The notes beneath the pieces are model-generated. The model did no database searches. It had not been told where the DNA came from and worked only from the letters and a program-made list of their open reading frames with translations. 46,968 bases of DNA, from positions 1 through 46,968 of the forward strand of contig JAJPJL010000085.1 in the NCBI GenBank assembly GCA_021324255.1. Direction: 5' to 3'. Position numbers and translations under genes: made by a program. Source of the stretch: Bacillota bacterium (GTDB lineage Bacteria; Sysuimicrobiota; Sysuimicrobiia; Sysuimicrobiales; Segetimicrobiaceae). Of the stretch, positions 6,112-46,968 are shown piece by piece (position 1 is the first letter of the stretch; every line of letters starts with the position of its first letter).

Positions 6112-6498
6112 TTGGCCTCTCGCCGCGACGCGCTCCCGTACATCCGCAACGCACACACGGACGAGAAGATACGGACGTGGGTTCCGTCGGTGCTCCTGAC
6201 GCAGACTCAGGTCTGGATCGCCGAGCTCCGCGGCGCGGTGGTCGGGTTTTTCGCGCTGCACGGTGATCAACTCGATCATGTGTATCTCCAACCGGGATAC
6301 TACGGGCGCGGCATCGGCAGCCTGCTTCTCCATAAGGCCAAGGACCTCAGCCCGCAGCGCCTGACGCTGTGGACCTTCCAGCGGAACGAACGCGCGCGGG
6401 CATTCTACGAAGCGCACGGATTCGTTCCGGTGAGATTCACCGACGGGTCGGACAACGAGGAGCGCGAGCCCGACGTGCTCTACGAATGGAATCGTTGA
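6112..6498 (+). CDS. GNAT family N-acetyltransferase
   Basis: GNAT motifs: ELRGAVVGFFALHGDQLDHVYLQPGYYGRGIGSLLL, AFYEAHGF. Homology (IRPARPGDAAAIAHIYLAS…) continues about 16 codons upstream of the TTG at 6112, with no in-frame ATG/GTG/TTG, so the true start is uncertain. Confidence 0.8.
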   Translation: MASRRDALPYIRNAHTDEKIRTWVPSVLLTQTQVWIAELRGAVVGFFALHGDQLDHVYLQPGYYGRGIGSLLLHKAKDLSPQRLTLWTFQRNERARAFYEAHGFVPVRFTDGSDNEEREPDVLYEWNR

Positions 6499-6856: not shown

Positions 6857-7494
6857 GCCGTTACTATCCGGTCTCGCTTGACCTCGCCGGCCGGCGCTGT
6901 GTCGTGTTGGGCGGCGGATCGGTTGCCCAACAAAAAGTCCTCGGGTTGCTGGACGCAGGAGCACGCGTCGTGGTGATCGCCGAGTCGGTCACGCCCGGGC
7001 TGGATGCCCTCGCGTCGCACGGACGCGTCGAGATCACGAGACGCGCGTACCGGCGAGGTGATCTCACGGGAGCGTTCCTGGCGATCGCCGCGGGCGATCG
7101 TGGGATGCACCCGGCCGTGTGGGATGAAGCCGCCGGCGGACGCATCCTCCTCAATGCCGTGGACGACGCCCCGTACTGCCATTTCATCGCACCGGCCATC
7201 CATCGCCAGGGCGAGCTCGTCATTGCCGTCTCCACGGCGGGTAAAAGCCCGGCGCTCGCCGTCCGCCTGCGAAACCGCATCGCCAAGCTCGTCGGCCCGG
7301 AGTACGGGGTCCTCCTCGAGATCCTGGGCGAGTTGCGGCCCGCGGTGGCGGCACGAGAACCTGACCCCGCTCGCCGCGCGGCGTTGTGGTACCGCCTCGT
7401 GGATTCGGATGTGCTCGACCATGTGCGGCGCGGTGATGCGGCGGGCGCCCGCGAGCGTCTCGCATCGTTGGTTCGTGCCGGAGCCGGCCGGTAA
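6853..7494 (+). CDS. Precorrin-2 dehydrogenase / sirohydrochlorin ferrochelatase (SirC / CysG N-terminal domain-like)
   Basis: Rossmann motif LDLAGRRCVVLGGGSVAQQKVLGLLDAGARVVVIA. The CysG-N-like remainder is present (…ILLNAVDDAPYCHFIAPAI…AVSTAGKSPALA…). Stop/start overlap (TAATG) with cobA. Confidence 0.85.
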   Translation: MSRYYPVSLDLAGRRCVVLGGGSVAQQKVLGLLDAGARVVVIAESVTPGLDALASHGRVEITRRAYRRGDLTGAFLAIAAGDRGMHPAVWDEAAGGRILLNAVDDAPYCHFIAPAIHRQGELVIAVSTAGKSPALAVRLRNRIAKLVGPEYGVLLEILGELRPAVAAREPDPARRAALWYRLVDSDVLDHVRRGDAAGARERLASLVRAGAGR

Positions 7495-8489
7495 TGCACG
7501 TCACGGGCGGCGCGGGCTCGGGCACGACCGCCGCAGTTCCCACAGCACGGTGCGACGCGCGTGTCTCCGGAGCGGGACGCACGATCGGCGCGGTGCGGCC
7601 CGGGGCCGTCTACCTCGTCGGCGCCGGCCCGGGCGATCCCAAATTGATCACCGTGCGCGGGCTCGAGGTCCTGCGCGCCTCTGACGTCGTCGTCTACGAT
7701 CGGCTCGCCCACCCCGCGCTTCTTCAGGAAGCGCCGCACGCGGCGGAACGCATCTACGCGGGGAAGCGGCCGGGACACCACACGCTCCGGCAGGAGCAGA
7801 TCAACACCTTGTTGATCGACCGCGCCCGCGGGGGGGCGACCGTCGTGCGGCTCAAAGGGGGAGACCCCTTCGTATTTGGTCGCGGCGGCGAAGAGTGCGA
7901 AGCCTTGCGCTCGGCCGGTGTCCCGTTTGAGGTGGTCCCGGGCGTGACCGCGGCGATCGCGGTCCCGGCGTACGCGGGCATCCCCGTGACCCACCGGCGC
8001 CACGGCTCCGCCTTTGCGGTCGTGACGGGCCACGTGGGCGGCAACCGGCGGGGTCCCGACTGGAGCGCGCTCGCGAGGATGCCCGTGCTGGTGGTGCTGA
8101 TGGGTCTGCGGGCGCTTCCCGAGACGTGCCGGCGCCTGATCGCTCACGGACGCGACGCCCGCACACCGGCGGCGGTTGTGAGCCTCGGAACGACCGCGCG
8201 GCAGATCACCGTCACCGGCACGCTGGGGACGATTGCGCAGCGCGCGCGCGCGGTGGCGCTGCCGGCGCCCACCGTGTGCATCGTCGGGGACGTGGCGCGC
8301 CTGGGGCAGACACTGCGTTGGTTCGCGCCCGAGCGTCACGTACCCGAGGGCTCCCCGGGCCCGAGCCCGATCTGGGGCGCCCCACGGCCGCCCGCGCGGC
8401 TCGATGCCCGATCAGACATCCGGACCCGTACGCGAACTCCGGCGTCCGCCCCGGCCGCATGCGCCGCGCGATGGCCTGACAAGGTATGA
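7494..8489 (+). CDS. cobA: Uroporphyrinogen-III C-methyltransferase (SUMT)
   Basis: [46 protein letters not shown] and [18 protein letters not shown] are the tetrapyrrole methylase signatures. Low-complexity N- and C-terminal extensions are present. Confidence 0.85.
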
Positions 8490-10381
8490 CACGAAGCGAC
8501 ACCCCGCATGAATCGCCTGCGCGCCGGCCCGGTCCGGCACCCGGCGGGCCCGCCGGGTTGCGGGTCCCGCTCACCGCCGGTCACGCCGGGCAACTCGAGG
8601 CACTCCTTGCAACGCTGTCGCGAGAGGAAGCGCTGTGGATCAGCGGGTACCTGGCCAGGGTTGCGCTGCAGGAATGCGCCGGCGTCCCCGCGGCGCCGTC
8701 CACCGCGCCGCCCGCCACCGAACCAATCACGATCCTCTACGGCTCGGAGACCGGTCATGCCGCAACGGTGGCGAAGCGCTTGGGCGAATTCGCCTCCGCT
8801 CGAGGCCTCCCAGCGCGCGTCGTCGATATGGCGGCGTTTCGCCCCCAGGAACTGACGAACGTCACGCACCTCGTCGTGGTGACGGCCACCCACGGCGACG
8901 GCGCGCCCCCCGACCCGGCGGCCGGCTTCTATGAATTCCTCCACAGCCGAAAAGCGCCGCGGCTCGAGCACACGACGTTCGCCGTGCTGGGTCTTGGCGA
9001 CTCCAGCTACGAACGCTTCTGCCAGACGGCCAAGGACTTCGATCGCCGGCTGGAGGAACTGGGCGCCCGGCGGCTGCTCGACCGCGTCGACTGCGATACC
9101 GACTACGAGGAACCCGCCGGCGCCTGGATCGAGGCCGTTCTCGCGCGCCTGACGTCGAACGGCGACGCCTCGCCAAGCGGGACGCGCAACGGGTCGAGCG
9201 CACGCGCCGTGCTCCGCACGGCGTCCCCGGACGGCGCGGCGCCGGAAGCCACCGCGCCGTCGTACGACCGCCGGAGGCCATTCCCTGCCGAGATCGTCGA
9301 CAGCCTCGTGTTGAACGGCCGCGGTTCGGATAAGGAGACGCGCCACCTCGAACTCTCCCTCCGCGGCTCCGGGTTGACGTATGAGCCTGGCGACTCGCTC
9401 GGCGTGGTTGCGGAGAACGACCCCGCGCTCGTCAGCGAGCTGATCGAGACGCTCGCGCTGGACCCGGACGAACCGGTCGCGGGCGTTGCGGGCGAGACGA
9501 CGCTAGCGCGGGCGCTGACGACGGATTACGAGATCACCACCCTGACGCCGCGCTTCATCGCGCGCTACGGGGACGCCGCTCAGGCGGAAACGCTCCGCAC
9601 GTTGACCCGCCCGGACGAGCAGAGCCGTCTCAGCGCTTACCTGGCCGGACGGCGGATCATCGATGTCGTCACCGCGTTCCCGGTGAGAGGGCTCCCGGGC
9701 GCGGCGTTCGTCGGCATGCTCCGGAGGCTCGAGCCCCGGCTCTACTCGATCGCGTCGAGCCTGACGGTGTATCCCGAGGAAGCGCACCTCACCGTCGGCG
9801 TCGTGCGCTACCGGGCACACGGGCGGCGGCACACGGGAGTGGCGTCCGGCTATCTCGCGGACCGGCGCGCCGTCGGCGACGCCGTCTCCGTATACGTCGA
9901 GCGAACCGAACACTTTCGGCTGCCCCGGGATCCCGCAGCGCCCATCATCATGATCGGCGCCGGCACCGGTGTGGCGCCGTTCCGCGCGTTCGTCCAGGAA
10001 CGGCAGGCCATCGGGGCAACGGGCCGCAGCTGGCTGCTGTTCGGCGATCGTCGCTTCCGCATCGACTTCCTCTATCAGGTCGAGTGGCAGCGCGCGCTCC
10101 GCGAGGGCCCACTCAGCCGCATGGATGTGGCGTTTTCGCGCGACCAGCCGGAGAAGGTGTACGTGCACCATCGCCTGTTGGAGGCGGCGCGCGACATCTA
10201 CGCGTGGATCCAGGACGGCGCCTACCTCTACGTGTGCGGGAGCGCAGACCGCCTGGCGCCGTCGGTTCACGAGACGCTGATCACGATCGTGGAGCAGCAG
10301 GGACACGTGGACCGTGGGCGCGCCGAGGAGTACGTCAAGAACCTGCAGCGGGAACGGCGCTACCAACGGGACGTCTACTGA
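8486..10381 (+). CDS. cysJ: Sulfite reductase [NADPH] flavoprotein alpha subunit
   Basis: Flavodoxin-like domain ([19 protein letters not shown]…, [18 protein letters not shown]), FAD-binding (RLYSIASS) and NADPH-binding ([22 protein letters not shown]) ferredoxin-reductase domains. 631 aa. ATGA overlap with cobA. Confidence 0.85.
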
Positions 10382-10394
10382 ACGGAGCGCGACG

Positions 10395-12146
10395 ATGACG
10401 ACGGCAGACCGTGGCACGGACCGAAGCCGGGATCTCACCCAGCCCTTGGAGCGGCTGCACCACAACGAGACGATCAAGGCCGAGAGTCGCTACCTCCGCG
10501 GCTCCATCGCGGAGGGCCTGGTCGACCCGGTGACCGGTGCGATTCCCGGGGACGAGGCGCCGCAGATCCTCAAATTCCACGGGGTGTATCAGCAGGACGA
10601 CCGCGATCTCCGCGCCGAGCGGCGGCGCCAGAAGCTGGAGCCCGCCTACCAGTTCATGGTGCGCGTGCGTCTGCCCGGCGGCACGTGCCGGCCCGACCAG
10701 TGGCTCAGGCTGGACGCGTTGGCGCGTGAACACGCCAACGGCACCCTCCGGCTCACGACGCGGCAGACCTTCCAGTTCCACGGCGTGCTGAAGCGGGACC
10801 TGAAAGCAACGATCCAGCGCATCCACGCCGCGCTGCTGGACACGATCGGCGCGTGCGGCGACGACAATCGCGGGGTGATGTCCTCGCCCAACCTCGACCA
10901 GTCGGCAATCCACGCACAAGTGTACCCGCTGGCGAAACAGCTCAGCGACGCGTTGCTGCCGCGCACGCGCGCCTACCACGAAATCTGGTTGGACGAGACG
11001 CCGGTCGCGGGCGGTGACCGCGAAGAGGAGCCCATCTACGGCCGCACGTACCTGCCCCGGAAGTTCAAGCTGGGGCTGGCGATCCCGCCGACCAACGACG
11101 TCGACATCTACACGCAAGACCTCGGGTTCATTGCGATCGCCGAGGGCGATCGGCTGGCGGGCTTCGATGTGTGCGTCGGCGGCGGCATGGGCCGCTCCGA
11201 CAACGAGCCCGCCACGTACCCGCGGCTCGCGGATGTGATCGGATTTTGCGCCCCGGAGCAGGTCGTGGCGGTGGCCGAGCAGGTCGTCGGCATCCAGCGC
11301 GACTTCGGCGATCGTGTCGACCGGAAGCACGCGCGCTTGAAGTACACCATCGACGACCGCGGGCTGGAGTGGTTCCGCGGCGAGCTGCATCGACGCCTGG
11401 GCTGGCACCTCGGGGACGCGAGGCCGTTCCGCTTCGACACCAACAGCGACCGCTACGGGTGGACGGAGGCGCTCCGTGGCCGCTGGCACTATGCGCTGTT
11501 CGTCGAAAACGGGCGAGTCCGGGACGGCGAGGCCCTGCAACTGATGACGGCCCTGCGCGAGATTGCGAGCGTCCACACGGGCGAGTTCCGCCTCACACCG
11601 AACCAAAACCTGATCGTGGCGAACGTCCCGGCCGAGGAGCGGGACCGGATCGACCGCATCCTCGAGGCGCATGGGGCCATGGCCCCTGCGCGGCAGAGCG
11701 TCCTTCGCCGCCACGCGGTCGCGTGCGTCGCGCTGCCGACGTGCGGGCTGGCGATGGCGGAGAGCGAGCGCTACCTCCCGTCCCTCCTTACCAAGCTCGA
11801 GGCCATTGCGGCATCATGCGGGCTCGAGCGCGACCCCGTGATCATTCGAATGAGCGGCTGTCCCAACGGGTGCTCGCGCCCGTACGTCGCCGAGATCGGG
11901 TTCACGGGCCGCGCGCCCGGCAAATACAACGTATATCTCGGCGGCGGGTTTCACGGCCAGCGGCTCAACAAGCTCTTCCTGGAAAACGTCGGGGAGGCGC
12001 AGATCCTGGAGGGGCTCGCGCCGGTCATTCGACGCTACGCCGCCGAGCGGCTGCCGGCCGAGCGCTTCGGCGACTTCGTGATTCGTGTCGGGTACGTCAA
12101 GGAGGTACGAGCGGGTCGCGAGTTCAACGACGAGGACCAAGGCTAA
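10395..12146 (+). CDS. cysI: Sulfite reductase hemoprotein beta subunit (siroheme/4Fe-4S)
   Basis: NirA/CysI repeats ([15 protein letters not shown]…, [13 protein letters not shown]…, [38 protein letters not shown]). ATG at 10395 lies 14 nt after the cysJ stop. The track's longer 10314 start overlaps cysJ with non-homologous sequence. Confidence 0.9.
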
Positions 12147-12260
12147 TTCTCATTCGGGCGGAAGACCCGGCCGGGTTCCCCGGTGGGAAGGAGGTCGGGG
12201 ATCGAATTGGAAATTCCGCCTAGCGGGTCGCCGGAACCGGGACGCGCACAGGCGGCCGGA

Positions 12261-13079
12261 ATGGCGGGACGGAGGTGTGTCACGGATCCGCTTGCACGAT
12301 TCAAGGACGCTCAGAGGCAAGGGTGGGCGCATTTCGCGCCGCTGGCGGACAACACGACACCGGAGGCCGCACGGCTCGTGAAGCACGCGGGAGTGCGCCC
12401 GGGAGACCGGGTGCTCGACGTCGCGTGCGGCACGGGGGTCGTGGCCATCACGGCGGCCCGTTTGGGAGCCCGCGTGACGGGGCTCGACATCACGCCGGAG
12501 CTCATCGCACACGCCCGCGAGAACGCCGGCATTGCCGACGTCGAGGTCGAGTGGCATGAGGGAGATGTCGAGGAGCTGCCGTTCGGCGACGCGGCCTTCG
12601 ATGTGGTCCTCAGCCAGTTCGGACACATGTTTGCGCCGCGGCCCGACGTCGCGGCGGCGGAGATGCTGCGTGTCCTGAAACCGGGCGGGACGATCGCGTT
12701 CTCCACCTGGCCGCCTGAACTGGTCCTCGGCCGATTGTTTGCGCTCGGCGGGCGCTACATGCCCCCGCCGCCGGCGGGCGTCATGCCGCCGACCGGGTGG
12801 GGAGATCCCAACATCGTCCGCGAACGGCTCGGCTCGGCGGTCAAAGACCTCGTGTTTGACCGCGCGACGATGCGAGTCCCCGCTCTGAGTCCGCAACACA
12901 GTCGGCGGATATCGGAGCGTACGGCCGGCCCGCTGGTCAAGCTCGTCGAATTCCTGGCCGCGACGGATCCGGCCCGTTTGGCCGCCTTCCGGCGCGAGTA
13001 CGATGCCATTGTGGCCGACTACTTCGAAGACAATACCGTGCGGCAGGACTATCTGCTCACACGCGCGACCAAGATCTAA
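12261..13079 (+). CDS. Class I SAM-dependent methyltransferase (Methyltransf_11-like)
   Basis: Motif I VLDVACGTGVVAITAARLGARVTGLDI, motif II/III region EGDVEELPFGDAAFDVVLSQFG…LRVLKPGGTIAFS. The start is chosen at MAGRR…; the track's 12183 start adds non-homologous residues. Confidence 0.8.
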   Translation: MAGRRCVTDPLARFKDAQRQGWAHFAPLADNTTPEAARLVKHAGVRPGDRVLDVACGTGVVAITAARLGARVTGLDITPELIAHARENAGIADVEVEWHEGDVEELPFGDAAFDVVLSQFGHMFAPRPDVAAAEMLRVLKPGGTIAFSTWPPELVLGRLFALGGRYMPPPPAGVMPPTGWGDPNIVRERLGSAVKDLVFDRATMRVPALSPQHSRRISERTAGPLVKLVEFLAATDPARLAAFRREYDAIVADYFEDNTVRQDYLLTRATKI

Positions 13080-13248
13080 CGAGACTTCCGCCTCAGACCG
13101 CCGAGGCATGTGGTCCGAGACGTGTTCCCATCGGCGATACGCGGCGAAGCCGGAGGGATTGTCGCCGACGGCTGGTGGATCGTCGCACCGTAATCGTCAA
13201 GGCCCTCTCGTACGAGCGGGGTTGACGGTCCGGGGGCCGCGTTTGTTA

Positions 13249-14307
13249 TTAGCCTTCGTCCTGCTCGCCCGCCCCGTACGCGGCGGTGCTCGAAGGTCCT
13301 GAGGCGTCCTCGTGGACCGCGACGCGGTGTCGCGCCCTCCGGAGCTCACCGTGTAATCCCGCGCGGGCCCCGATGCGAGGAGCATACCCGAGGGCCGCGA
13401 TCTTGGAGATGTCAAAGTGGTAGTCGCTGAACAGTCCGCGGAGCTCCTGCATTCCAAGATGTGCGAGATCCGACCGTCCCCACCAGCGGCCGAGAAGGTT
13501 GATGAGCGGCCTGATCACGACCGCGCACCGCCAGGGAATGGACGGGAACCAGAGCGAGCGGTCCAGCGCCTCGGCAATCCATCGCAGGAGGTCTCCCGCA
13601 CGATAGCATCCGCCGTCCGTCACGTTGTAGGCCTCGCCGGACCGTCCTGTTTCCATGACGAGCAGATGCGCCCTCGCGAGATCGTCCGCGTGCACCACGT
13701 CCACCAGGTGGCGGCCGCCGTCCGGCAGCGGCAGCAGCGGCAGCCGCATGAGGCGCGCCGCTTCCGGCACGAAATATCGATCGCCGGGACCGTAGACGAT
13801 GCACGGCCGGAGATTTATCGCGCGGAGGCCGCGAGCCGCGGCGTCGCGCACCCGTCGTTCCGCCTCGACCTTGGACGCTCCATAGATGCCCGCCGGGTTG
13901 AGCGGCGCGTCCTCGGCGACACCGACAGGCAGCAGGTCACCGTACACGGATACGGAACTCGTGTATACGACCCGGCCGGCGCCGGCGGCACGAGCCGCCT
14001 CGAGCAACCGGCGCGTGCCCTCCGCGTTCGTCTCCCACATCTCCGCGGCCGTGTGCCTGTGGACGTCCACGGCCCCCGCCACATGGTAGACATCGTGCAC
14101 TCCCGTACAGGCCGGCCGCAGACTCGTTGGGTCCCGCAGATCGCCCTGGGCAATCTCCACCTGTGGTCCAAAGAGGCCGCGAGCGCCCTCCGCGTCCCGC
14201 ACAAAGACGCGAACCGGGCGGTTCTGCGCCAGCAGCGCGCGCACCACGGCGCGCCCCACCAATCCGGTGGCGCCCGTCACCAGCGTGCGCGGCTCACCCA
14301 TCGACAA
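13249..14307 (-). CDS. NAD-dependent epimerase/dehydratase family protein (extended SDR)
   Basis: TLVTGATGLVGRAVVRALL (GxxGxxG), the YGASK catalytic Tyr-x3-Lys, and NAD(P)-binding fold throughout. Confidence 0.85.
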   Translation of the reverse strand: MSMGEPRTLVTGATGLVGRAVVRALLAQNRPVRVFVRDAEGARGLFGPQVEIAQGDLRDPTSLRPACTGVHDVYHVAGAVDVHRHTAAEMWETNAEGTRRLLEAARAAGAGRVVYTSSVSVYGDLLPVGVAEDAPLNPAGIYGASKVEAERRVRDAAARGLRAINLRPCIVYGPGDRYFVPEAARLMRLPLLPLPDGGRHLVDVVHADDLARAHLLVMETGRSGEAYNVTDGGCYRAGDLLRWIAEALDRSLWFPSIPWRCAVVIRPLINLLGRWWGRSDLAHLGMQELRGLFSDYHFDISKIAALGYAPRIGARAGLHGELRRARHRVAVHEDASGPSSTAAYGAGEQDEG

Positions 14308-14413
14308 CGACTCGCGGAAATTCCACTTCGACGCCTATCCCTTTCTCGTCAACGGGGCCACCCGGCCTTTCCGTCCGGGGCCCTTCCCGCCGCCGCCCGC
14401 GGGAGGGGACAGC

Positions 14414-14700
14414 GGCTACCGGGGCCTGGTTCGCGATGCCTTCGCGAGGCGCCGGCGCCTCACTCCCACCGACAATTTCTACGAGTGGCACTCACACCCT
14501 GGGGCGCAGAAACAACCCGAGGCGATCTCTCGAGCCGATGGCGAGCCATCGGCCCTCGCGGGTCTGCGGGAAGCGCGGCCTGATTCCGAGCGGGACACCG
14601 ATCTGCGCGCATGCACCATCGTGATGACGGGAGTCAACGGCTCCACATCGCACACCTGCCATGCGAGGAGTTCGATCGACCTATCTGGTTGGGTGAGGCA
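14414..14700 (+). pseudogene. N-terminally truncated remnant of an SOS-response-associated peptidase (SRAP/YedK/HMCES family) gene
   Basis: The + frame gives …AFARRRRLTPTDNFYEWHSHPGAQKQPEAISRADGEPSALAGLREARPDSERDTDLRACTIVMTGVNGSTSHTCHARSSIDLSGWV. This aligns to the YedK core (RRCLVPADGYYEW…KQPWYFHRADGQPLLMAGLWD…SFTIITTEAN…IHDRMPVLL…WL) with degenerated conserved positions (GLWE to GLRE, HDRMP to HARSS). The N-terminal Cys2 domain is absent and would overlap the epimerase gene. The frame then runs on through antisense rpoZ. Confidence 0.4.
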
Positions 14701-14793
14701 GAAGGCGATCCCCGGAGTCTCGCACGTCCCGCGTCCCGGGGGGACGCTCCGCGTCAGGCCCGTGAGCCGGCGATCACGCACGCGGACAGATGC

Positions 14794-15078
14794 TCACCGC
14801 TCGCCTATGGCGACCTCGGCAACGTCGCGATCAGGCGGCGCTGCGTCCACGTCCGCCTCCGCCTCGTGCCGCGCGGTCCCTGCCGGCCGTTTGGCGCTCA
14901 CGCATAGCTTGCCCGATGCCAACTCTTCCATCGCGACGAGGACGGGATTCCGCGTGCTCGTTTCAATCGCCGGGATGCCGCCGCGCATCAACTGTTCCGC
15001 CCTGGTCGCGACCACATGCACGAGAGCAAATCGCGGACTCGCCTTGGCCAAAAGAGCCTCGATGGACTCCTGCCGCAT
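14794..15078 (-). CDS. rpoZ: DNA-directed RNA polymerase subunit omega
   Basis: IEALLAKASPRFALVHVVATRAEQLMRGGIPAIETSTRNPVLVAMEELASGKL aligns along its length to E. coli RpoZ ([29 protein letters not shown]…TTVIALREIEEGLI). A GGGGGAAAAGG Shine-Dalgarno precedes the start. Confidence 0.8.
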   Translation of the reverse strand: MRQESIEALLAKASPRFALVHVVATRAEQLMRGGIPAIETSTRNPVLVAMEELASGKLCVSAKRPAGTARHEAEADVDAAPPDRDVAEVAIGER

Positions 15079-15355
15079 ACGCCTTTTCCCCCTGGGACCG
15101 GCGTCCCGTTTCTGTGGCTCGCTGTCAGCCGAGGGGAGGAAAGCGCCTGCGGCGCACTACGCCGGCACGCCCCGGGGCTATCCTCATTGTACCACTCGCG
15201 CGAGCATCACTGCCGTGGCGATGGCCGCCGGCCGGGACGCTCCACACCCGGCGAGGCGAGTCAAAGCGGGAGCGCATCGTGAGACAACGAACCTGTTTGG
15301 AGGCTACGATCAGTGGAGGTGGGTCGATGCGGTTGAATGCGTTGCGGGGTGGGTC

Positions 15356-15550
15356 GTGAGCGACCGAGTGCGCGCGAAGGCCGGCCTGCCGTGGCCGGTA
15401 AGCGGCATCTACGTGTGCGACAAGTGCCATGCGGAACACATCGCGTGTGCCGGAGACGTCACGCCGCGGTGCTCGGCCGAACGCGGCGACGGACACCGGT
15501 GCAACTGCGCGTACTTTGTCCTGCGTGCGGGTAACAGCGCTGCCTCGTGA
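15356..15550 (+). CDS. Possible small Cys-rich (zinc-ribbon-like) protein, 64 aa
   Basis: The tail of the long + ORF (GTG at 15356) reads VSDRVRAKAGLPWPVSGIYVCDKCHAEHIACAGDVTPRCSAERGDGHRCNCAYFVLRAGNSAAS. It has CxxC…C…C…CxC spacing and high GC3 codon usage. No family was recognised, so this is speculative. Confidence 0.25.
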   Translation: MSDRVRAKAGLPWPVSGIYVCDKCHAEHIACAGDVTPRCSAERGDGHRCNCAYFVLRAGNSAAS

Positions 15551-15653
15551 ATTCTCGTGCGGAACCTCTCATCGCTTCCACGTCCAAGATCCGCAAGGCC
15601 GGGTGACGTTCACCCGGACACGGACGGTGAGATTCCCGGAGCCTGCGGCCGCG

Positions 15654-18385: not shown

Positions 18386-18865
18386 CTACGGGACGTCCGC
18401 GCCCACCAGCACCCTCCCCTCCCGCCCGGCGCGCGTCCGCTCGCACTCCTCGAGCGATCGGTGCCCGGATTCACGAATACCGCGTACGATCTCTCGAGTC
18501 GTCAGGTATCCGGCGAGATAGGAAACGATCGCCCGTTGGGCTGTCAAATCGACGCTGGCGTGCAGGACACCGGGCAACGCGCGCAACGCGTTCTCAATCC
18601 GGCCTACGCACGACGAACAGGCGCTGCCGTCCACTGCGACGACCGCGTGTGAGGTCCGGACCTCGCAGCCCACCGAGCGCAACACTTCCGCAAGCTTCAG
18701 GAGGTCCACGCGGTTGGGGTCGAATGCGATGCGCACCTTCTCGGTGGCCGCGGTCATTGACACGAGGTGCACGCCGCAGACGTCGGTCAGAGCGGATGTA
18801 ATATGCGCGGTCGATCCCGCAACATGTGTTCCCGCGATCGGTAGAAGAACGATGTGTTCGGGCAT
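18386..18865 (-). CDS. Tandem heavy-metal-associated (HMA) domain protein; the first domain lacks the CxxC site, the second has GSACSSC
   Basis: Two beta-alpha-beta-beta-alpha-beta HMA-like repeats: IVLLPIAGTHVAGSTAHITSAL…VRIAFDP (Cys replaced) and VVAVDGSACSSCVGRIENALRALPGVLHASVDL…AIVSY (CxxC intact). Confidence 0.6.
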   Translation of the reverse strand: MPEHIVLLPIAGTHVAGSTAHITSALTDVCGVHLVSMTAATEKVRIAFDPNRVDLLKLAEVLRSVGCEVRTSHAVVAVDGSACSSCVGRIENALRALPGVLHASVDLTAQRAIVSYLAGYLTTREIVRGIRESGHRSLEECERTRAGREGRVLVGADVP

Positions 18866-19405: not shown

Positions 19406-20467
19406 GTGTCTTCTGCGATTCCACAACCGGTCCTTGCGCGGCTCACGCGCGCCGCCATCTTTCTGGTCGTGACGGTGAACCCGGGCCCGGACCATCGTGC
19501 CGCCGTGCGGGCGTTGTGTGGAGATCTGTCCGCTCTCCTACGCGCCGTGGGATTCCGTGACCTCGAGGGCCACCTGTCCTGCGTCATGGCGTTTGGCTCC
19601 GACGCCTGGGACCGGCTGTTCGGGCCGCCGCGGCCGAAAGCGCTCCATCCGTTCCGAGAGATCCGCGGCCGGCATCATGCCGTCTCCACGCCGGGGGATA
19701 TTCTGTTCCACATCCGCGCCGCGCGCATGGACCTCTGCTTCGAGCTGGCGATGCAGATCATGGCCCGGCTCGGCTCCGCCGTGTCCACGACGGACGAAGT
19801 CCATGGCTTCACGTACTTCGACGACCGCGATTTGATCGGGTTCGTCGATGGGACGGAGAACCCCGCGGAGCAGGCGGCGATTGACGCCGCCATCATCGGC
19901 GACGAGGATCCGGCGTTCGCCGGTGGCAGCTACGTGGTCGTACAGAAGTATCTGCACGACCTGCAGGGGTGGAATGCGCTGCCCATCGAGGAGCAAGAAC
20001 GCATCATCGGTCGCACCAAGCTGTCCAACATCGAGCTGGACGATGCCGTGAAACCCACCTCGGCACACAACGAGTTGACGACGATCGTGGAAGACGGGGA
20101 GCAGCTGGAGATCGTCCGTGACAACATGCCGTTCGGGGACGTGGGGAAGGGCGAGTTCGGCACGTATTTCATCGGCTATGCCCGGTCCCCTCACCGGATC
20201 GAGCAGATGCTCCTGAACATGTTCGTCGGCCGGCCGCCGGGGAATTACGACCGGCTGCTCGACTTCAGCCGCGCGGTGACCGGCACGCTGTTTTTCGCGC
20301 CGTCGGCAACGTTCCTGGAGACCGTGGCAGCCGGGGACGCGGCGCCGGCGGTCGCCGGCCCCCCGGTTGACGGCGCGCCGGGCACGCCCGCCGACGAGGC
20401 ACGAGCGGCGTCGCGTGATGGTTCGCTCGGCATTGGTTCATTGAAAGGAGACCGCGAGCATGACTAA
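19406..20467 (+). CDS. Dyp-type peroxidase with a C-terminal encapsulin cargo-loading peptide
   Basis: DyP signatures (…AAIFLVVTV…, GFVDGTENP, …FGTYFIGYARSP…). The C-terminal tail …DGSLGIGSLKGDREHD matches the family-1 encapsulin targeting-peptide consensus (SxGIGSLKG). Confidence 0.9.
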   Translation: MSSAIPQPVLARLTRAAIFLVVTVNPGPDHRAAVRALCGDLSALLRAVGFRDLEGHLSCVMAFGSDAWDRLFGPPRPKALHPFREIRGRHHAVSTPGDILFHIRAARMDLCFELAMQIMARLGSAVSTTDEVHGFTYFDDRDLIGFVDGTENPAEQAAIDAAIIGDEDPAFAGGSYVVVQKYLHDLQGWNALPIEEQERIIGRTKLSNIELDDAVKPTSAHNELTTIVEDGEQLEIVRDNMPFGDVGKGEFGTYFIGYARSPHRIEQMLLNMFVGRPPGNYDRLLDFSRAVTGTLFFAPSATFLETVAAGDAAPAVAGPPVDGAPGTPADEARAASRDGSLGIGSLKGDREHD

Positions 20468-21266
20468 TCTTCACCGAGAACTCGCTCCTATCTCGGACCT
20501 GGCATGGGCGCAGATCGAGGAGGAGGCGTCCCGCACCCTCAAGCGCCACCTGGCGGCGCGGCGCGTCGTGGACGTGCAGGGCCCGAAGGGCGTCGATTTC
20601 TCGGCCATCGGTACCGGCCATCTCCGGCCGCTCGAGACGCCGGGCGAAGGGATCCATGCCGCGCAACGCGAGGTGAAGGCGCTCGCCGAGTTGCGGGTCC
20701 CCTTCGAACTCGACCGTCAGGCGATCGATGACGTGGAACGCGGCGCCAGCGATTCGGACTGGCAGCCGTTGAAGGAAGCGGCGCGCAAGATCGCCTTCGC
20801 CGAGGATCGGGCCGTCTTTGAGGGGTACGCGCCGGCGGGGATCTCAGGCATCCGTCAGGGAACCAGCCATCCGGTGCTGACCCTCCCGGCCGACGTGAAG
20901 GACTATCCCGACGCCGTGGCCCGGGCGGTCACGCAATTGCGCCTCGCCGGCGTCAACGGGCCCTATGCTCTTCTGCTCAGCACAGATGCCTACACCGCCG
21001 TGAGCGGAGGCAGCGATGATGGATACCCGGTCCTGCGGCACGTCGCGCGTCTCGTGGACGGGGAGATCATCTGGGCCCCGGCCATCTCCGGCGGCGTGGT
21101 CCTCACGACTCGCGGCGGCGACTTCGCGTTGCACATCGGCCAGGACATCTCGATCGGGTATCTCGCCCATACCGATGCCGCCGTGCGACTGTACCTACAG
21201 GAGACGTTCACGTTCCTACAGTTGACCGCGGAAGCCGCGGTGGTGCTGACGCCCCCGGGCCGGTAA
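20460..21266 (+). CDS. Family 1 encapsulin nanocompartment shell protein (linocin M18-like, HK97 fold)
   Basis: MTNLHRELAPISDLAWAQIEEEASRTLKRHLAARRVVDVQGP… and …VLTTRGGDFALHIGQDISIGYLAHTDAAVRLYLQETFTF… align along their full length to M. tuberculosis Rv0798c and T. maritima encapsulin. The start overlaps the DyP stop (ATGA). Confidence 0.9.
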   Translation: MTNLHRELAPISDLAWAQIEEEASRTLKRHLAARRVVDVQGPKGVDFSAIGTGHLRPLETPGEGIHAAQREVKALAELRVPFELDRQAIDDVERGASDSDWQPLKEAARKIAFAEDRAVFEGYAPAGISGIRQGTSHPVLTLPADVKDYPDAVARAVTQLRLAGVNGPYALLLSTDAYTAVSGGSDDGYPVLRHVARLVDGEIIWAPAISGGVVLTTRGGDFALHIGQDISIGYLAHTDAAVRLYLQETFTFLQLTAEAAVVLTPPGR

Positions 21267-23600: not shown

Positions 23601-23676
23601 TGGCGGGCCCGGAGGGAATCGAACCCCCGACCTGAGGCTTAGGAGTCCCCTGCTCTATCCACTGAGCTACGGGCCC
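23601..23676 (-). tRNA. tRNA-Arg (anticodon CCU)
   Basis: Reverse complement GGGCCCGUAGCUCAGUGGAUAGAGCAGGGGACUCCUAAGCCUCAGGUCGGGGGUUCGAUUCCCUCCGGGCCCGCCA. It has a 7-bp acceptor stem, D-arm GCUC/GAGC, anticodon loop CUCCUAA and T-loop GGTTCGATTCC. The CCA is encoded. Confidence 0.85.
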
Positions 23677-23754
23677 GTTGTCAAGCGTCGTTCGCCGGCG
23701 GCGTTGAGCGCCTGGCGGTCGCTGTTAGTGTAGCACGATCAGTGACGTCTCGGA

Positions 23755-24237
23755 CTAGGGCAGCGTGGGGCCCGTCGGCTGCGGCATGTCCTGCTCGTCC
23801 GCGCCCTCCTCCGCGTCCAGCGCCTCGTCGCCGTTGGTGTACGCAATGGGCGCCCGACGAGGAATCGCCTCGATCCGCGCCGGTCTCTGTGTGGATCGCG
23901 GGCTCCCGTGGCGCTTCACCTTGACCGCCTTTGGACGGCCATCCTTCCCGGGCGCGATCTCAAACGAGACCGCCTCGCCGGCTTCAAGCGACCGAAGGCC
24001 GGTGCCCTCGATGTCGCTGTAGTGCACGAAGAAGTTGCGGTTCATGGCCTCGCACTCGATAAAACCCCACCCATGCTCGAAGCGAGACACAACACCCGTG
24101 TACCGGCGGCCATCGCCTACCGCGGACTCGGCTCCGTTGGCGGATGTCACCATCTGTTCCAGATCACGCTCGCGTACGCCCAGGTGAGCGCACAACGCAC
24201 GAAGCATCTGTTCGATACGATCCAATTGCTGAGCCAT
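23755..24237 (-). CDS. Cold-shock domain (CspA/Y-box)-containing protein with N- and C-terminal extensions
   Basis: CSD core YTGVVSRFEHGWGFIECEAMNRNFFVHYSDIEGTGLRSLEAGEAVSFEIAPGKDGRPKAVKVK (RNP1-like GWGFI, RNP2-like FFVHY). Start at MAQQL… with GGAGG at 8 nt. The track's 24303 start is longer. Confidence 0.8.
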   Translation of the reverse strand: MAQQLDRIEQMLRALCAHLGVRERDLEQMVTSANGAESAVGDGRRYTGVVSRFEHGWGFIECEAMNRNFFVHYSDIEGTGLRSLEAGEAVSFEIAPGKDGRPKAVKVKRHGSPRSTQRPARIEAIPRRAPIAYTNGDEALDAEEGADEQDMPQPTGPTLP

Positions 24238-24769
24238 CGCTATGACCTCCATGCTCGCGGTATGCCAACGCACGTTCCGGACGCCTCTCAGAGGACGAAT
24301 CAATCATTCAATCATGTGTGGTGGGTCCACGGAGAAACCGAGGTCCAAGTAGTTGACGTGTCACGTGCCCGCCTCTATGAACACACATACCCGATCGGGA
24401 GCAATCCTACACCCTTCCGCCGCGCTTGAGGTCGAGCCGGCCACACCCCGAGCCCCGGGCGCGATCTCCCGTGAGCGAGCCGCCGGGCTCCAATGATGCA
24501 CCCGAATCGACCCGTCTGGATCCCCGTTGCGCGGAATAATCGAGCCTGTCCAACGAAATGCGGGCCCCTGCCGGGGCAGGATCACGTCCTTCAGAATGCG
24601 TCTTCGGCCGCCCGGCAACCCGGGAACCAGGCCTCGCCGCCTGCATAAATTATGCGATGCGGATACGCGCAGGTCAACGGATGCCGCCGGCATGCGCCCG
24701 GATGCAGGGAGCCTTCCCAGACGTTACATTCAGGGGAGGACTACATCGCGGTCCTGGGGAGGTGAAGAC

Positions 24770-25018
24770 GTGGCAGAGAAGCTCGACGTGACCATCGAAT
24801 ACTGCACGAGTTGAGGGTACCTTGGCCACGCCGTCCGTGTGACGGAGTCGATCCTCAAAGAGAAGCCGCAGGGCATTCGCTCGCTTCGGTTGGTCCCATC
24901 CTCAGGCGGGGTCTTCGAGGTGTCCGCAAACGGGCGTCTCGTGTTCTCGAAAAAGGAGACCGGCCGGCGGCCCGAACCCGAGGAGGTCCTCCAAGGCCTC
25001 TTCGCCAGCCGGGCCTGA
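24770..25018 (+). CDS. SelW-like (Rdx family) selenoprotein; in-frame UGA at 24812-24814 read as selenocysteine (CxxU)
   Basis: GTG start with GGGGAGGTG at 5 nt. The translation (M)AEKLDVTIEYCTS-U-GYLGHAVRVTESILKEKPQGIRSLRLVPSSGGVFEVSANGRLVFSKKETGRRPEPEEVLQGLFASRA aligns to SelW/bacterial SelW-like proteins (VVYCGAUGY…GFFEV…G.L.HSKK). The frame continues cleanly past the TGA to a stop at 25016-25018. The ORF track splits it at the TGA. Confidence 0.75.
24826..24850 (+). promoter_or_regulatory. Candidate bacterial SECIS hairpin downstream of the in-frame UGA
   Basis: A stem (CCGUC/GACGG, 5 bp, extendable with mismatches) has a 5-nt apical loop CGUGU containing G and U, starting about 17 nt after the UGA. 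This matches the position bSECIS elements occupy. The structure is hand-folded only. Confidence 0.35.
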
Positions 25019-25034
25019 AGCTACCGCATGCGGT

Positions 25035-25057
25035 GGGGGGGCCGGCGCCGGCCCCCC
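25035..25057. terminator. GC-rich perfect hairpin between the convergent selW-like gene and the minus-strand secreted-protein gene (putative bidirectional terminator)
   Basis: GGGGGGGCCGG-CG-CCGGCCCCCC is a perfect ~10-bp palindrome directly between the two stop codons. There is no U-tract, as is typical in high-GC genomes. Confidence 0.35.
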
Positions 25058-25070
25058 TACCGCGCTCGCA

Positions 25071-25685
25071 CTAATACCACGCGATCGCCACGTCTTGTAA
25101 CGGGACCGTCACTCCCACGCCGGAGTCCACGAAGACACGCCACCGTGGGAGCGTCCGATCAATGTCGCCGATGATGCTGCGTTTGCCATCCAAGCATCCA
25201 TAGTTGACGCGCATGCCGGCTACGCCCGCGGTGGCGCCGGTTAAGAAGGTGCACCGCGTGCCGTCGCCGAGCTCGAGCGCCCAGGGGAGCCCGCGACCAA
25301 TGCCGGACGCGTTGGCTTGTGCGCGGGCCGGTTCCTTGGTGGGGCGCAGCACCGTCACCCGGGGGGACCACGGCGTCTCCGGACACGCGAGCGCCGGCGT
25401 GCTGCCCTCGAATCCCTGGAAGCATGGGTCCATGATGGCGTTCCCGCTCATGCACCGCCAGGCGTCGTCTCTTGCCTGATCCGCGACCGACGCCGCGAAG
25501 CACTCTCCGGAGACCCGCCGCGTCACGAGCACTCCCGGCCGCAGCGCGCCGGGGCCGAACGCGGCGTAGACGCGGATCGCGGTGGCGCTCGGTGCGGACT
25601 GCGCATGGAGGCGGCCCGGCGGGGCCGCCAGCAACCACGCACCCGCCGCCGCGATGATTACCCACGAAGCCGATCGCCGTGCCAT
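25071..25685 (-). CDS. Hypothetical secreted protein (signal peptide, 6 Cys)
   Basis: ATG at 25685 with GGAGG at 5 nt. Signal peptide MARRSASWVIIAAAGAWLLAAPPGRLHA/QS. No family recognised. High GC3. Confidence 0.6.
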   Translation of the reverse strand: MARRSASWVIIAAAGAWLLAAPPGRLHAQSAPSATAIRVYAAFGPGALRPGVLVTRRVSGECFAASVADQARDDAWRCMSGNAIMDPCFQGFEGSTPALACPETPWSPRVTVLRPTKEPARAQANASGIGRGLPWALELGDGTRCTFLTGATAGVAGMRVNYGCLDGKRSIIGDIDRTLPRWRVFVDSGVGVTVPLQDVAIAWY

Positions 25686-25925
25686 CGTGCCTCCTACCGC
25701 ATCGCGAAGTCGCGAGTGCAAGATACGGAGCGCGCCCGGGGGGCTCCTCTCCGGGCGGCGTCGCATACGATCGCCGGCGCCGGCTCACCATGCGACACCG
25801 ACAACGCGCGTGCCGCTGTGACGCGTAATCGCTGACTGCGACCGCCGGCGAGGCGAAGCCGGGAGTGTGGACATCCGTTCGCCTTGCCAGGCACCCGGAC
25901 GCCCGATATAGTGGCGCCATCCGCC

Positions 25926-38619: not shown

Positions 38620-40992
38620 TCAGCGAGGCGTGTGGGCCAGTCGGGTCTCGAGCGTCCGCCGCGCACGGGCCACGTCGTCGCGGAGCGCCGCGATGCCGGC
38701 GGCGCGGCCGGCGCCCTCGCCCGTCGCGCCGCCGGTCAACACCAACACCCACAGCAGCCTGTGCACGTCATCCACGCCGGCGACTCGGTACCGCGCAGCG
38801 GTCTGCGGCGGACGGCGGCCGACTTTGATCGTGAGCGCCGACTCGGGCAGCGCACGGAAGGCGTCCTCATCCGCCCAATCGTCGCCGATGTAGATCGGTT
38901 GAACGCGCATCGCCCAGGCGTCCCCAAACGTTTGCATCAAGATGCGCCGGACCGCGGCGCCCTTGTCCCACGCCACGTTGGGCCGCACTTCGAGGGCGTG
39001 GGCGCCGAGCTGGACGCCGATTTGCCCGGGCGCCGCCTGCCCGGTTTCCTCGAACACGACATCCCGGACCCGTTCGAGAAACGCGTGTGGCGTGCGCCGG
39101 TAGTGCACCGTGAGCGTCAGCCCCTTGTCCTGCAACCAGGCGCCGGGAATCTCACGCAGCCGGCGTGCAAGCCGCACGGCGCATGCTTCGATCGCCGGAC
39201 GCGCCCGCTCCGCGTCGGGCAGCACCCAGGTCGCGTCCCCATCCGTCATCTCCAATCCGTAGTTCCCGGCGTACACGAAGCCGTCGATTCCAATGCGCCC
39301 CGTCAAATCGTCGAGCGCGCGACCGCTGACGATGGCGACCAGGGTCGCGGGACGCTCCGCCAGCCGGAGCAGCGCGGTTCGGGCATCGGGGGGCAGGGAC
39401 ACCCGCGACGGATCGTCGTGGAATGGCGCCAGGGTCCCGTCGAAGTCCAGGAAGACGGCCAATGGGCGTCCGCTGCGCGATGTGTGCTCGACGGCCGCCG
39501 CCGCCTCGGCCTTGGGGCGGATGGCCGTGCCGGCGTGGAGCAGCCGGGACGCGGTCTCGAGGTGCTTGCCCATCCAGCGATACACGTCCTGCGCAAACAC
39601 GTGCCGCCGCAGGTGATCGAGCCGCTGCCGCCGCTCTTCCACGGGCATCGCAAGCGCCCGCGCCATCGCCGCGGCGCAACCGGCCGCGTCGTACGGATTG
39701 ATGGACACGCTGCCGGTGAGCTCGTCGTGCGCACCGGCGAACTCGCTGAGGAGCAGCACACCGCTCACATCCACCTGGCATGCCACGAATTCCTTGGCCA
39801 CGAGGTTCATGCCGTCCTGAATGGAACTGACGACGCACAGGTCCGCGAGCCGGTAGAGCGCGGCCATGCCGGCCGGTGGCAGCGGATCGGGCAGCGCGAT
39901 AATCGGAATCCAATCCGGCGTGCCGTGGGCCGCGTTGAGCCGCTCGATCCGCTCCTCGATCCGAGCCCGGAGATCGCGGTACACCTTGATCTGTCCCCGG
40001 CTCGCGGCGAGCTTTTGAATGAACACGACGCGGCCGCGGTATTCCGGCCACCGGGACAGCAATTGATCGATGCCGCGGAGCCGCTTGAGGATGCCCTTCG
40101 TGTAGTCGAGCCGATCCACGCTGAGCACGATCCGCCGCCCCTCGAGACCGAGCACGCGGCGGAACCCATCCATCCACCGCTCGGCCTGCGGCGACCGCGC
40201 AACCTCGTCGAGGGCCGCGGCGTCCACGCTGATCGGAAACGCCTCCACCACCGTCCGCCGCCCCGCGTACCAGACGGTGTTGCCGGACACGTGCGCCCCG
40301 AGATCGCGCCGCGCGCACTCGAGGAAGTGCTCGACGTGCCGATCGTGTTGAAACGTGAGGAGGTCGTTCGCCAGCAGGCCGTCGAGGAGCGCCACCCGCT
40401 CCGGGCAGACCCGAAACGCGTCCCACGCGGGCCACGGCACGTGCCAGAAATGCATGAGAAACAGATCCGGCCGAAGCTCCCGCAGCGCGCGCGGACACGT
40501 CGCCAGGTGGTAATCGTGCAGCCACACGACCGCGTCGCGAGGGGCCTCCGCGGCGACCGCCTCCGCGAACCGCCGGTTGACCGCCTGGTACGTCTCCCAG
40601 TACCGCGTCCGCACGCGGACTTGGTCCATGACCATGTGGCAGAGCGGCCACAAGACCTGGTTCGCATAGCCGTAATAGTAGCCGTCGACGTCCGGCCGGG
40701 AGAGCGCGATACGCTTGAGCGTGTAGCGCGGGTTGTCATCCGGCACCTGCACCCGGCCATCCGCGTCGGCGACCGCGAAGTCCGCGTCACCGTCGCCCCA
40801 TGCGATCCAGGTGCCCGAGACAGCCTGCATCACCGGGTCCAGGGCGGCCACCAGTCCCCCGGCGGGACGCTCCACGCTGATGCCTCCCGGGCCGGTTCGA
40901 TGCGCGTAAGGTTCGCGATTGCTGACGATCACCAGCTGGCGCCCTTTCAGCATGCCGTCGAGTTGCTCAAGGCGCCCTCGTGCGATGACCAT
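38620..40992 (-). CDS. otsA: Bifunctional trehalose-6-phosphate synthase (GT20, OtsA) / trehalose-6-phosphate phosphatase (HAD, OtsB) fusion
   Basis: N-terminal GT20 (RQLVIVSNREPY…, …GYANQVLWPLCH…, …VDRLDYTKGI…, LVAKEFVAC… (GT20 nucleotide-sugar-binding region)). The C-terminal ~270 aa is HAD trehalose-phosphatase (VFLDFDGTLAP… motif I, …GKG/ …IYIGDDWADEDAF motif IV). GGAGGTG at 6 nt before the ATG. 790 aa. Confidence 0.9.
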   Translation of the reverse strand: MVIARGRLEQLDGMLKGRQLVIVSNREPYAHRTGPGGISVERPAGGLVAALDPVMQAVSGTWIAWGDGDADFAVADADGRVQVPDDNPRYTLKRIALSRPDVDGYYYGYANQVLWPLCHMVMDQVRVRTRYWETYQAVNRRFAEAVAAEAPRDAVVWLHDYHLATCPRALRELRPDLFLMHFWHVPWPAWDAFRVCPERVALLDGLLANDLLTFQHDRHVEHFLECARRDLGAHVSGNTVWYAGRRTVVEAFPISVDAAALDEVARSPQAERWMDGFRRVLGLEGRRIVLSVDRLDYTKGILKRLRGIDQLLSRWPEYRGRVVFIQKLAASRGQIKVYRDLRARIEERIERLNAAHGTPDWIPIIALPDPLPPAGMAALYRLADLCVVSSIQDGMNLVAKEFVACQVDVSGVLLLSEFAGAHDELTGSVSINPYDAAGCAAAMARALAMPVEERRQRLDHLRRHVFAQDVYRWMGKHLETASRLLHAGTAIRPKAEAAAAVEHTSRSGRPLAVFLDFDGTLAPFHDDPSRVSLPPDARTALLRLAERPATLVAIVSGRALDDLTGRIGIDGFVYAGNYGLEMTDGDATWVLPDAERARPAIEACAVRLARRLREIPGAWLQDKGLTLTVHYRRTPHAFLERVRDVVFEETGQAAPGQIGVQLGAHALEVRPNVAWDKGAAVRRILMQTFGDAWAMRVQPIYIGDDWADEDAFRALPESALTIKVGRRPPQTAARYRVAGVDDVHRLLWVLVLTGGATGEGAGRAAGIAALRDDVARARRTLETRLAHTPR

Positions 40993-41083: not shown

Positions 41084-41097
41084 CATGGCCCGGCTGG

Positions 41098-41240
41098 CCT
41101 TCTCTCGATGCCTACGGGGTTAGCTGACGGGCTCGGGCCGAGAGACTTGCCCTACCTGCGCGCACACACAGGCTGCGCCCCACGAACTTGGGTCCCCCGT
41201 TCCCCGAACGGTCCTCGGGGATTCGGCACATCGTGCGTTG
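41098..41240 (-). promoter_or_regulatory. ydaO/kimA-type cyclic-di-AMP riboswitch aptamer in the 5' leader of otsA-otsB
   Basis: The minus-strand RNA contains hallmark ydaO blocks in the right order: GCCGAAUCC…GGGGAAC…CGGGGGACCCAAG…GGUAGGGCAAGUC…CCCGAGCCCGUCAGCUAACCCCGUAGGCAUCGAGAGAAGG. Compare B. subtilis/T. tengcongensis GCCGAAUCC…GGGGGACCCAA…GGUAGGGCGAAA…CCCGACAGCUAACUCCGGAGGCAAU / …CGUAAGCGUUCGAGAGGAGG. It is followed by an intrinsic terminator and preceded by an AT-rich TACAAT -10-like element at ~41270. Confidence 0.6.
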
Positions 41241-46890: not shown

Positions 46891-46968
46891 GGAGGGGTGG
46901 CCGAGCGGTCCAAGGCAACGGTTTGCTAAACCGTGACCCCTTAACCGGGGTCCGTGGGTTCGAATCCC
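46891..46968 (+). tRNA. tRNA-Ser (anticodon GCU), 3' end truncated by the window edge
   Basis: GGAGGGGUGGCCGAGCGGUCCAAGGCAACGGUUUGCUAAACCGUGACCCCUUAACCGGGGUCCGUGGGUUCGAAUCCC… has a class II tRNA with a long variable arm. Anticodon loop UUGCUAA. T-arm GGUUCGAAUCC present. The acceptor 3' strand lies beyond 46968. Confidence 0.8.

Follow-up and report, generated by a model that had tools for sequence, protein, structure and literature searches.

The locus and its reading frame

The window (the whole stretch of DNA analysed, 46,968 nt long) carries on its plus strand a gene for a small protein of the SelW-like, or Rdx, family, whose frame is crossed by an in-frame TGA. Read directly, this frame runs from a GTG start at 24770 to a terminal TGA at 25016-25018 and meets a single internal stop, TGA 24812-24814, at codon 15. 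Its 82 sense codons, the number that an earlier note on this DNA had given and that translation reproduces exactly, yield VAEKLDVTIEYCTS*GYLGHAVRVTESILKEKPQGIRSLRLVPSSGGVFEVSANGRLVFSKKETGRRPEPEEVLQGLFASRA, where the asterisk stands for the internal TGA. Cys12, with which the redox motif opens, is specified by TGC at 24803-24805. Coordinates of the features are collected in Table 1.

In a mechanical list of open reading frames the gene is split into 24527..24814 and 24839..25018, a division at the TGA to which the earlier note had drawn attention. Its further expectation, that standard gene callers would mis-annotate the locus, is also matched by the public record, where gene calls retain just a 59-residue tail (P0001, 100% identical to the window and on record from eight contigs). 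Given that the UGA is almost certainly a Sec codon, this is how automatic gene callers come to cut the gene to a fragment.

Table 1. Features of the SelW-like locus (window coordinates)
Feature	Position	Strand	Basis or remark
Shine-Dalgarno-like GGAGG	24758..24762	+	7 nt 5′ of the GTG start; read directly
SelW-like / Rdx-family selenoprotein gene (Sec predicted)	24770..25018	+	translation, profile matches, codon-position variation on both flanks
C-T-S-U redox motif, TGC ACG AGT TGA	24803..24814	+	direct reading; IEYCxx*GY kept in related loci
In-frame UGA, predicted Sec codon, residue 15	24812..24814	+	79 of 80 related loci likewise have TGA here
Candidate bacterial SECIS, extended hairpin	24811..24858	+	minimum-free-energy fold
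Apical hairpin U1, CCGUC / loop CGUGU / GACGG	24831..24845	+	covariation, loop G
Alternative apical hairpin W, CACGC / loop CGUCC / GUGUG	24827..24841	+	window minimum-free-energy structure, covariation
G+C-rich 16-bp hairpin	25029..25064	.	between the convergent SelW-like gene and minus-strand ORF 25071..25766

Neighbourhood and other features of the window

The SelW-like gene stands alone, with no partner gene pointing to a specific substrate. A 466-nt spacer (24304-24769), in which no Rfam family match was found, separates it from a divergently oriented cold-shock-domain gene upstream (23755-24303, minus strand), with tRNA-Arg(CCU) on that side as well. This arrangement of tRNA, cold-shock gene and SelW-like gene recurs in most of the near clade, in seven loci (L004-L008, L010 and L012; window 23601-24303 for the first two genes). 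One of these, from an ‘uncultured Firmicutes’ MAG (L006), also shares downstream hypothetical and DUF3048 genes. Within the spacer there is a sigma-70-like promoter match at 24677-24649 (minus strand), from which a cold-shock transcript would have some 340 nt of 5′ leader. On the other side, the G+C-rich hairpin that follows the SelW-like gene folds at -39.2 kcal/mol (z = -3.67, with 0 of 200 shuffles folding as well) and is terminator-like in look, though without a U-tract; for want of a T run it is passed over by a simple terminator scan. Two weak Rfam matches on this hairpin were dismissed as meaningless. The convergent ORF beyond it has no family matches.

Several features elsewhere in the window are independent of the selenoprotein question. 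A c-di-AMP (ydaO-type) riboswitch (41095-41238, minus strand; 92.9 bits) lies about 100 nt 5′ of a fused trehalose-6-phosphate synthase/phosphatase gene (38620-40992, minus strand), which suggests that c-di-AMP controls synthesis of the compatible solute trehalose here. At 19406-21266 (plus strand) a DyP-type peroxidase gene runs into the start of the gene for an encapsulin (Linocin_M18) shell, the pair being a classic peroxidase-encapsulin nanocompartment operon, and upstream of it is a gene for an HMA (heavy-metal-associated) domain protein (18386-18865, minus strand). A sulfite-reduction cluster at 7494-12146 (plus strand) comprises a tetrapyrrole methylase (siroheme synthesis), a CysJ-like flavoprotein and a CysI-like hemoprotein, with a small gene for a siroheme-synthase N-terminal domain just 5′ of it in the public gene calls (L084).

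A screen of the whole window for additional in-frame TGAs with coding signal on both sides gave no credible case. TGA 5018, considered as a recoded codon, proved to be an artefact of an antisense uppS gene followed by a protease gene. The TGA of the SelW-like gene was itself missed, since only 14 codons precede it, so the screen is insensitive to N-terminal Sec codons.

Family assignment

For profile and structure-homologue searches the read-through protein was used with U replaced by C. It matches Pfam Rdx (PF10262) at E=2e-21 (76.4 bits, cut-off 22.6), in an alignment that covers residues 7-75 of the 82 and hence both sides of the UGA. It also matches TIGR02174 (CXXU_selWTH), with a score of 70 bits where the cut-off is 34.2. 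Membership of the Rdx/SelW family, which the earlier note had proposed from the letters, is thereby upheld by both profiles, and so is its proposal that homology persists past the UGA as far as a proper stop, with the Rdx match extending to residue 75 and the terminal TGA following in frame. The narrower Campylobacter-type equivalog NF041051 (SelTWH_Campy) scores 80.1 bits, under its cut-off of 88, and the protein is therefore not a member of that subgroup.

Seven solved Rdx-fold chains are homologous, the best being Atu0228 (2fa8) at E=5.7e-11, with mouse SelW (2npb) and MIEN1 (2ljk) among the solved homologues, and a thioredoxin-like fold is predicted from this homology. Near its N-terminus the protein has C12-T-S-U15 as its form of the family's CxxC/CxxU redox motif. 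In printed alignments, e.g. with 2fa8, the CxxC of the solved homologues falls at the CxxU position, and C12-T-S-U15 likewise aligns with the C-A-S-C of two Cys-type relatives (L067 and P0008). The UGA had been placed by the earlier note at exactly the CxxU redox position, and it does stand opposite a Cys in the Cys-type homologues (L067, P0008 and P0009) as well as in solved Cys-type bacterial Rdx proteins such as 2fa8.

Conservation of the UGA and of both coding flanks

A search over 5.8 billion proteins returned 32 relatives of the SelW-like protein. About 25 of them, P0001 included, are fragments of 45-61 residues that start shortly past the UGA position, the mark left by gene callers that halt at a TGA conserved in the family. 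A DNA scan with one genome per species yielded 584 confirmed relatives, the best 80 of which were kept and read. TGA is present at the homologous codon in 79 of these best 80 of 584, the sole exception being an actinomycete MAG (L067) with TGT (Cys), and the motif flanking the TGA in related loci is I-E-Y-C-x-x-*-G-Y. The hosts of the best 80 of 584 are labelled as Bacillota, Chloroflexota, Armatimonadota, Verrucomicrobiota, Actinomycetota and others. Judged from these comparisons, a family match that continues across the UGA, together with TGA in 79 of 80 loci, is far beyond chance.

Closest to the window copy, at 62-73% identity, are loci in metagenome-assembled genomes that carry the labels Armatimonadota, ‘Bacillati bacterium ANGP1’ and ‘uncultured Firmicutes’, and the nine nearest orthologues (L003-L010 and L012, among the best 80 of 584) have 61-73% identity. 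All nine have an ATG or GTG exactly 14 codons 5′ of the TGA, and all nine have a purine-rich Shine-Dalgarno-like run, usually GGAGG, some 6-11 nt 5′ of that start. In the 13 N-terminal codons of the nine, variable columns number 8, 4 and 12 at codon positions 1, 2 and 3, respectively; in the 60 nt further upstream every column varies. The conserved start, the Shine-Dalgarno-like run and the 8/4/12 pattern together indicate that the N-terminal segment is translated and under purifying selection, as is the part that follows the UGA. The pattern of variation by codon position is thus that of coding sequence on both sides of an in-frame UGA that lies opposite the Cys of homologues.

A candidate SECIS in competing registers

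The minimum-free-energy fold of the sequence at the UGA is an extended hairpin with a lower stem of 8 bp (24811-24818 with 24851-24858) that holds the UGA. Folded by itself, 24806-24880 is unexceptional (z = -1.19; 24 of 200 shuffles fold as well), and support for the hairpin therefore comes from comparison with relatives and not from thermodynamics. An Rfam scan of 24250-25150 found no curated RNA family, at the gathering or the E<=1 threshold. The comparison used an alignment (A2) of 72 distinct Sec-type sequences, gap-free from -3 to +57, in which column c corresponds to window position 24808+c. RNAalifold gave no single consensus structure for all 72, because the register of the hairpin differs between lineages, and pairs were for that reason counted for named helices instead. 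The lower stem is retained in the consensus fold of the ten closest sequences; across all 72 sequences (columns 3-10 with 43-50) it is only 60.8% paired and is treated as a feature of the near clade only.

In the apical part, U1 (columns 23-27 and 33-37, i.e. 24831-35 and 24841-45) has 84.4% of its cells paired in the 72 sequences, and a covariation score of 0.326 compared with at most 0.218 for slid controls, a score that 0 of 500 shuffles reach. In its pair 24-36, which is CG in 37 sequences, GC in nine, AU in three and UA in one, the wobble base of an Ala codon is matched with the wobble base of an Ala/Thr codon. The pattern is compensatory and unexplained by protein coding. W (columns 19-23 and 29-33, i.e. 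24827-31 and 24837-41) has 76.1% of its cells paired in the same 72 sequences and a covariation of 0.294, compared with at most 0.122 for slid controls and again with 0 of 500 shuffles reaching the observed value. The shuffle controls ignore relatedness and the hairpin columns are also under protein-coding constraint. More weight attaches to the slid controls and to the compensation between wobble bases.

U1 and W, 4 nt apart, are mutually exclusive, and the window can form either, the hairpin region beginning 12-16 nt past the UGA. A third register, B (AGAGC/AGUU/GCUCU), is that of eleven sequences, mostly clostridial. When all five pairs are required to form, the 72 sequences divide into 31 with U1 only, 14 with both U1 and W (the window and most of the near clade included), 11 with B only, seven, again mostly clostridial, with W only, and nine with none formed perfectly. 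Position 2 of the loop is G in 45 of 45 sequences for U1, 20 of 21 for W and 11 of 11 for B, and U is usually next. The sequence right after the UGA thus has a SECIS-type hairpin with a small, G-containing apical loop in two covarying registers. In the window the minimum free energy of the whole element favours W (-19.1 vs -16.4 kcal/mol), and as an isolated mini-hairpin U1 is the more stable (-6.7 vs -3.6 kcal/mol for W).

The hairpin that the earlier note had described, about 17 nt past the UGA and with a G/U-containing loop, is recognizable as U1, whose first base, 24831, lies 17 nt 3′ of the UGA's final base. Its proposal of a hairpin holds insofar as U1 is conserved and covarying, and needs refinement in that U1 is one of two registers, accompanied by a lower stem. 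Both loops carry G-U at positions 2-3, and for each of the two registers there is another lineage of the protein family in which no other can form. It is conceivable, if rather unlikely, that the window's clade carries a bistable SECIS, either as an evolutionary intermediate for a register shift within constrained coding sequence or as a switch tuning Sec insertion. The two competing registers in this clade are the only mildly unusual point of the locus, and are a low-probability lead.

Sec machinery and its linkage to the gene

None of selA, selB, selC and selD is present in the 47-kb window or in the 10 kb past its left end (L084), which holds transporter and amidohydrolase genes only; a look-up at the right end gave just a 1.6-kb contig. 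Pfam annotation of 40 window ORFs includes no SelA, SelB or SelD, and the tRNA genes of the window are tRNA-Arg(CCU), tRNA-Arg(ACG) and one truncated tRNA read as Ser(GCU). The last, at the window edge (46891-46968, plus strand), has GCU in its anticodon loop and a long variable arm, and is therefore a tRNA-Ser and not tRNA-Sec. With no sel genes in the window or the adjacent 10 kb, possession of selA, selB, selC and selD by this genome, which the earlier note had taken to be implied, is indicated only indirectly, and would follow from the conservation of the TGA and from the sel genes that lie beside orthologues elsewhere.

Such linkage is seen in four of the best 80 of 584 loci (L039, L050, L057 and L059) and is accordingly sporadic. 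In a Verrucomicrobiales MAG (L039; span 10001-15598) the orthologue (10001-10225) heads a run in which tRNA-Sec (10288-10383) comes next, and then selD, selA, a gene of transglutaminase-like type and selB. In two further Verrucomicrobiota loci (L050 and L057) tRNA-Sec and selD directly follow the SelW-like gene in the same way, selA being fully seen in L039 and L050. In Bacillus sp. 1P02SD (L059, 5346-10213) selB ends 22 nt 5′ of the orthologue, and tRNA-Sec and selD are just upstream. This Bacillus selD (6180-6404, minus strand) has an in-frame TGA of its own in the N-terminal motif (…TKAG*GCKIG…); it is itself of the Sec type, and is likewise truncated by ORF calling.

As for the genome to which the window belongs, three window proteins (1205-2254, minus strand; 20460-21263, plus strand; and P0001) are also recorded on a contig of 1,344,817 bp, and the first of these, an NMT1-family protein, is in addition encoded on GCA_037025125.1, contig JBAIIA010000026.1 (470 kb), which shares the left end of the window. 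A much bigger piece of this genome is thus public.

Proposed decoding and alternative readings

The reading preferred here, with a probability of roughly 0.9, is that 24770-25018 (plus strand) is a monocistronic gene for an 82-residue, thioredoxin-fold, Rdx/SelW-like redox protein whose UGA is recoded as Sec. The in-frame UGA almost certainly encodes Sec, which we infer in preference to any other residue. Translation most likely begins at GTG 24770, and recoding of the UGA at codon 15 would involve mRNA just downstream, within the coding sequence, folding as a bacterial-type SECIS, presumed to be functional, whose small apical loop has G-U at positions 2-3. By analogy with established bacterial Sec insertion, SelB-GTP-Sec-tRNA(Sec) would bind the hairpin loop while the ribosome is on the UGA, the lower stem with its UGA having presumably been melted by the approaching ribosome. 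Failure of Sec insertion would leave only a 14-residue peptide. The product would be a small thiol-dependent oxidoreductase in which Cys12-x-x-Sec15 may cycle between the selenolate/thiol and selenenylsulfide forms, as in other CxxU/CxxC thioredoxin-fold proteins.

The alternative that survives best, itself very unlikely, is that the UGA is read through without Sec, either by near-cognate insertion of Trp or Cys or because of a lineage-specific reassignment. Low-level read-through of UGA is known in bacteria, and the indirect case for Sec machinery in this genome leaves some room for it. Against it, TGA terminates 13 of the 30 Pfam-supported genes of the window (the terminal stop of the SelW-like gene included), several of them with domain matches to the last residue, as for the pyridoxamine-phosphate oxidase gene, whose C-terminal domain match runs right up to its TGA; the genetic code is therefore not reassigned. 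The position of the codon opposite the catalytic Cys of homologues, the conservation of the SECIS-like hairpin and the adjacency of Sec genes to the orthologue in relatives also tell against non-Sec decoding.

It is highly improbable that the annotated 59-residue ORF (GTG 24839 to 25018) is the true gene, with the UGA a plain stop of an unrelated upstream frame. There is a GTG at 24839, and this ORF is exactly what public gene callers give, here and for about 25 similar fragments. However, a protein so begun would be missing strand beta-1 along with the entire CxxU/CxxC redox centre by which the family is defined, and the Pfam match already begins ahead of the UGA, at residue 7. No Shine-Dalgarno-like sequence precedes 24839, and it is the 14 N-terminal codons, with their own start and Shine-Dalgarno-like site, that are conserved across orthologues. 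Many relatives, moreover, have no start at the equivalent place, which is why the annotated fragments begin at differing positions.

Scarcely credible is a pseudogene, i.e. a Cys-type Rdx gene in decay after a nonsense mutation from TGC or TGT to TGA. A single transversion would turn the Cys codon into TGA, Cys-type relatives do exist (L067, P0008 and P0009), and Sec machinery is not seen in the window. However, TGA as the usual state (79 of the best 80 of 584 related species) effectively refutes this reading, and the coding pattern of substitution on both flanks, the conserved start and Shine-Dalgarno-like site, the occurrence of the same sequence in independent assemblies and the covariation of the downstream hairpin are all contrary to decay.

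A sequencing or assembly error, to which a single-codon feature in metagenomic sequence might be thought open, has a negligible chance and is already refuted, being excluded by the identical gene on two more independently assembled metagenome contigs (L001 and L002) from different JGI samples, with the 59-residue fragment on eight contigs and TGA in 79 other species pointing the same way.

Implications

The window gene is a real, ordinary and previously mis-annotated SelW-like gene, and both the family and the mis-annotation are textbook cases. Recoding of its UGA changes nothing in what is known of selenoproteins. The practical gain is in annotation: what public collections have of the gene is just a 59-residue fragment that lacks the active site, with most relatives subject to the same error, and the corrected annotation gives back a CxxU redox protein. 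The organism, an uncultured soil bacterium, is also flagged as a probable Sec user, in whose genome other UGA-containing genes may occur. On a more modest reading than that of a bistable SECIS, the gene would be a marker of Sec use in an uncultured soil lineage of high G+C about which little is known.

Comparison with known systems

Mammalian selenoprotein W (2npb) and Rdx12/MIEN1 (2ljk) belong to the same fold family and have the same CxxU/CxxC motif, though homology to mammalian selenoprotein W is distant (E=0.022 for 2npb), and eukaryotic SelW relies on a 3′-UTR SECIS of other architecture and on other factors (PMC1088965). The solved Cys-type Rdx proteins (Atu0228, 2fa8; SAV_2001, 3dex; 2oka, 2obk, 2ojl and 2p0g) are closer, with homology over about 70 residues at E-values from 5.7e-11 to 3e-6 and their CxxC where the window has CxxU. 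They differ in having Cys for Sec, in being about 20 residues longer and in needing neither recoding nor a SECIS.

As to the recoding signal, a point of reference is the SECIS of the E. coli fdhF type. In work from the Böck laboratory this hairpin reportedly starts beside the UGA, with the UGA in its lower stem, and its small apical loop is reported to carry an essential G-U whose spacing from the UGA is short and fixed, features that the window hairpin would share. To our knowledge there is no sequence similarity between it and the window hairpin, which differs also in having two overlapping, competing registers.

The closest parallel is with the SelW-like selenoproteins of bacteria, an established family described since 2005 and known from Symbiobacterium thermophilum, Desulfotomaculum reducens, Alkaliphilus metalliredigenes and Geobacter sulfurreducens (PMC1088965, PMC1794560, PMC13188914). 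In Sargasso Sea data it was the most abundant selenoprotein family, with 48 genes; such genes were found to be almost universally mis-annotated, and the function of the family was called unclear (PMC1088965). It is also listed for Symbiobacterium, Desulfotomaculum, Alkaliphilus and Geobacter, with few Cys homologues in Sec-using organisms (PMC1794560), and a 2026 review counts ‘SELENOW-like protein, PF10262, CxxU’ as one of the high-confidence predicted families (PMC13188914). The best 80 of 584 relatives found here include orthologues from Symbiobacterium (L056) and from Desulforamulus/Desulfotomaculum (L037 and L042). The window protein shares with the family its domain, a length of about 75-90 residues and an N-terminal CxxU with UGA-encoded Sec (predicted in the present case). 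Also shared are a hairpin that directly follows the UGA inside the gene and has a G in its apical loop, and a great preponderance of Sec over Cys forms (79 to 1 among the best 80 of 584, the same trend as in PMC1794560). From these bacterial SelW-like selenoproteins the window copy has no difference in kind, and what sets it apart is its source, an uncultured soil lineage of 69% G+C.
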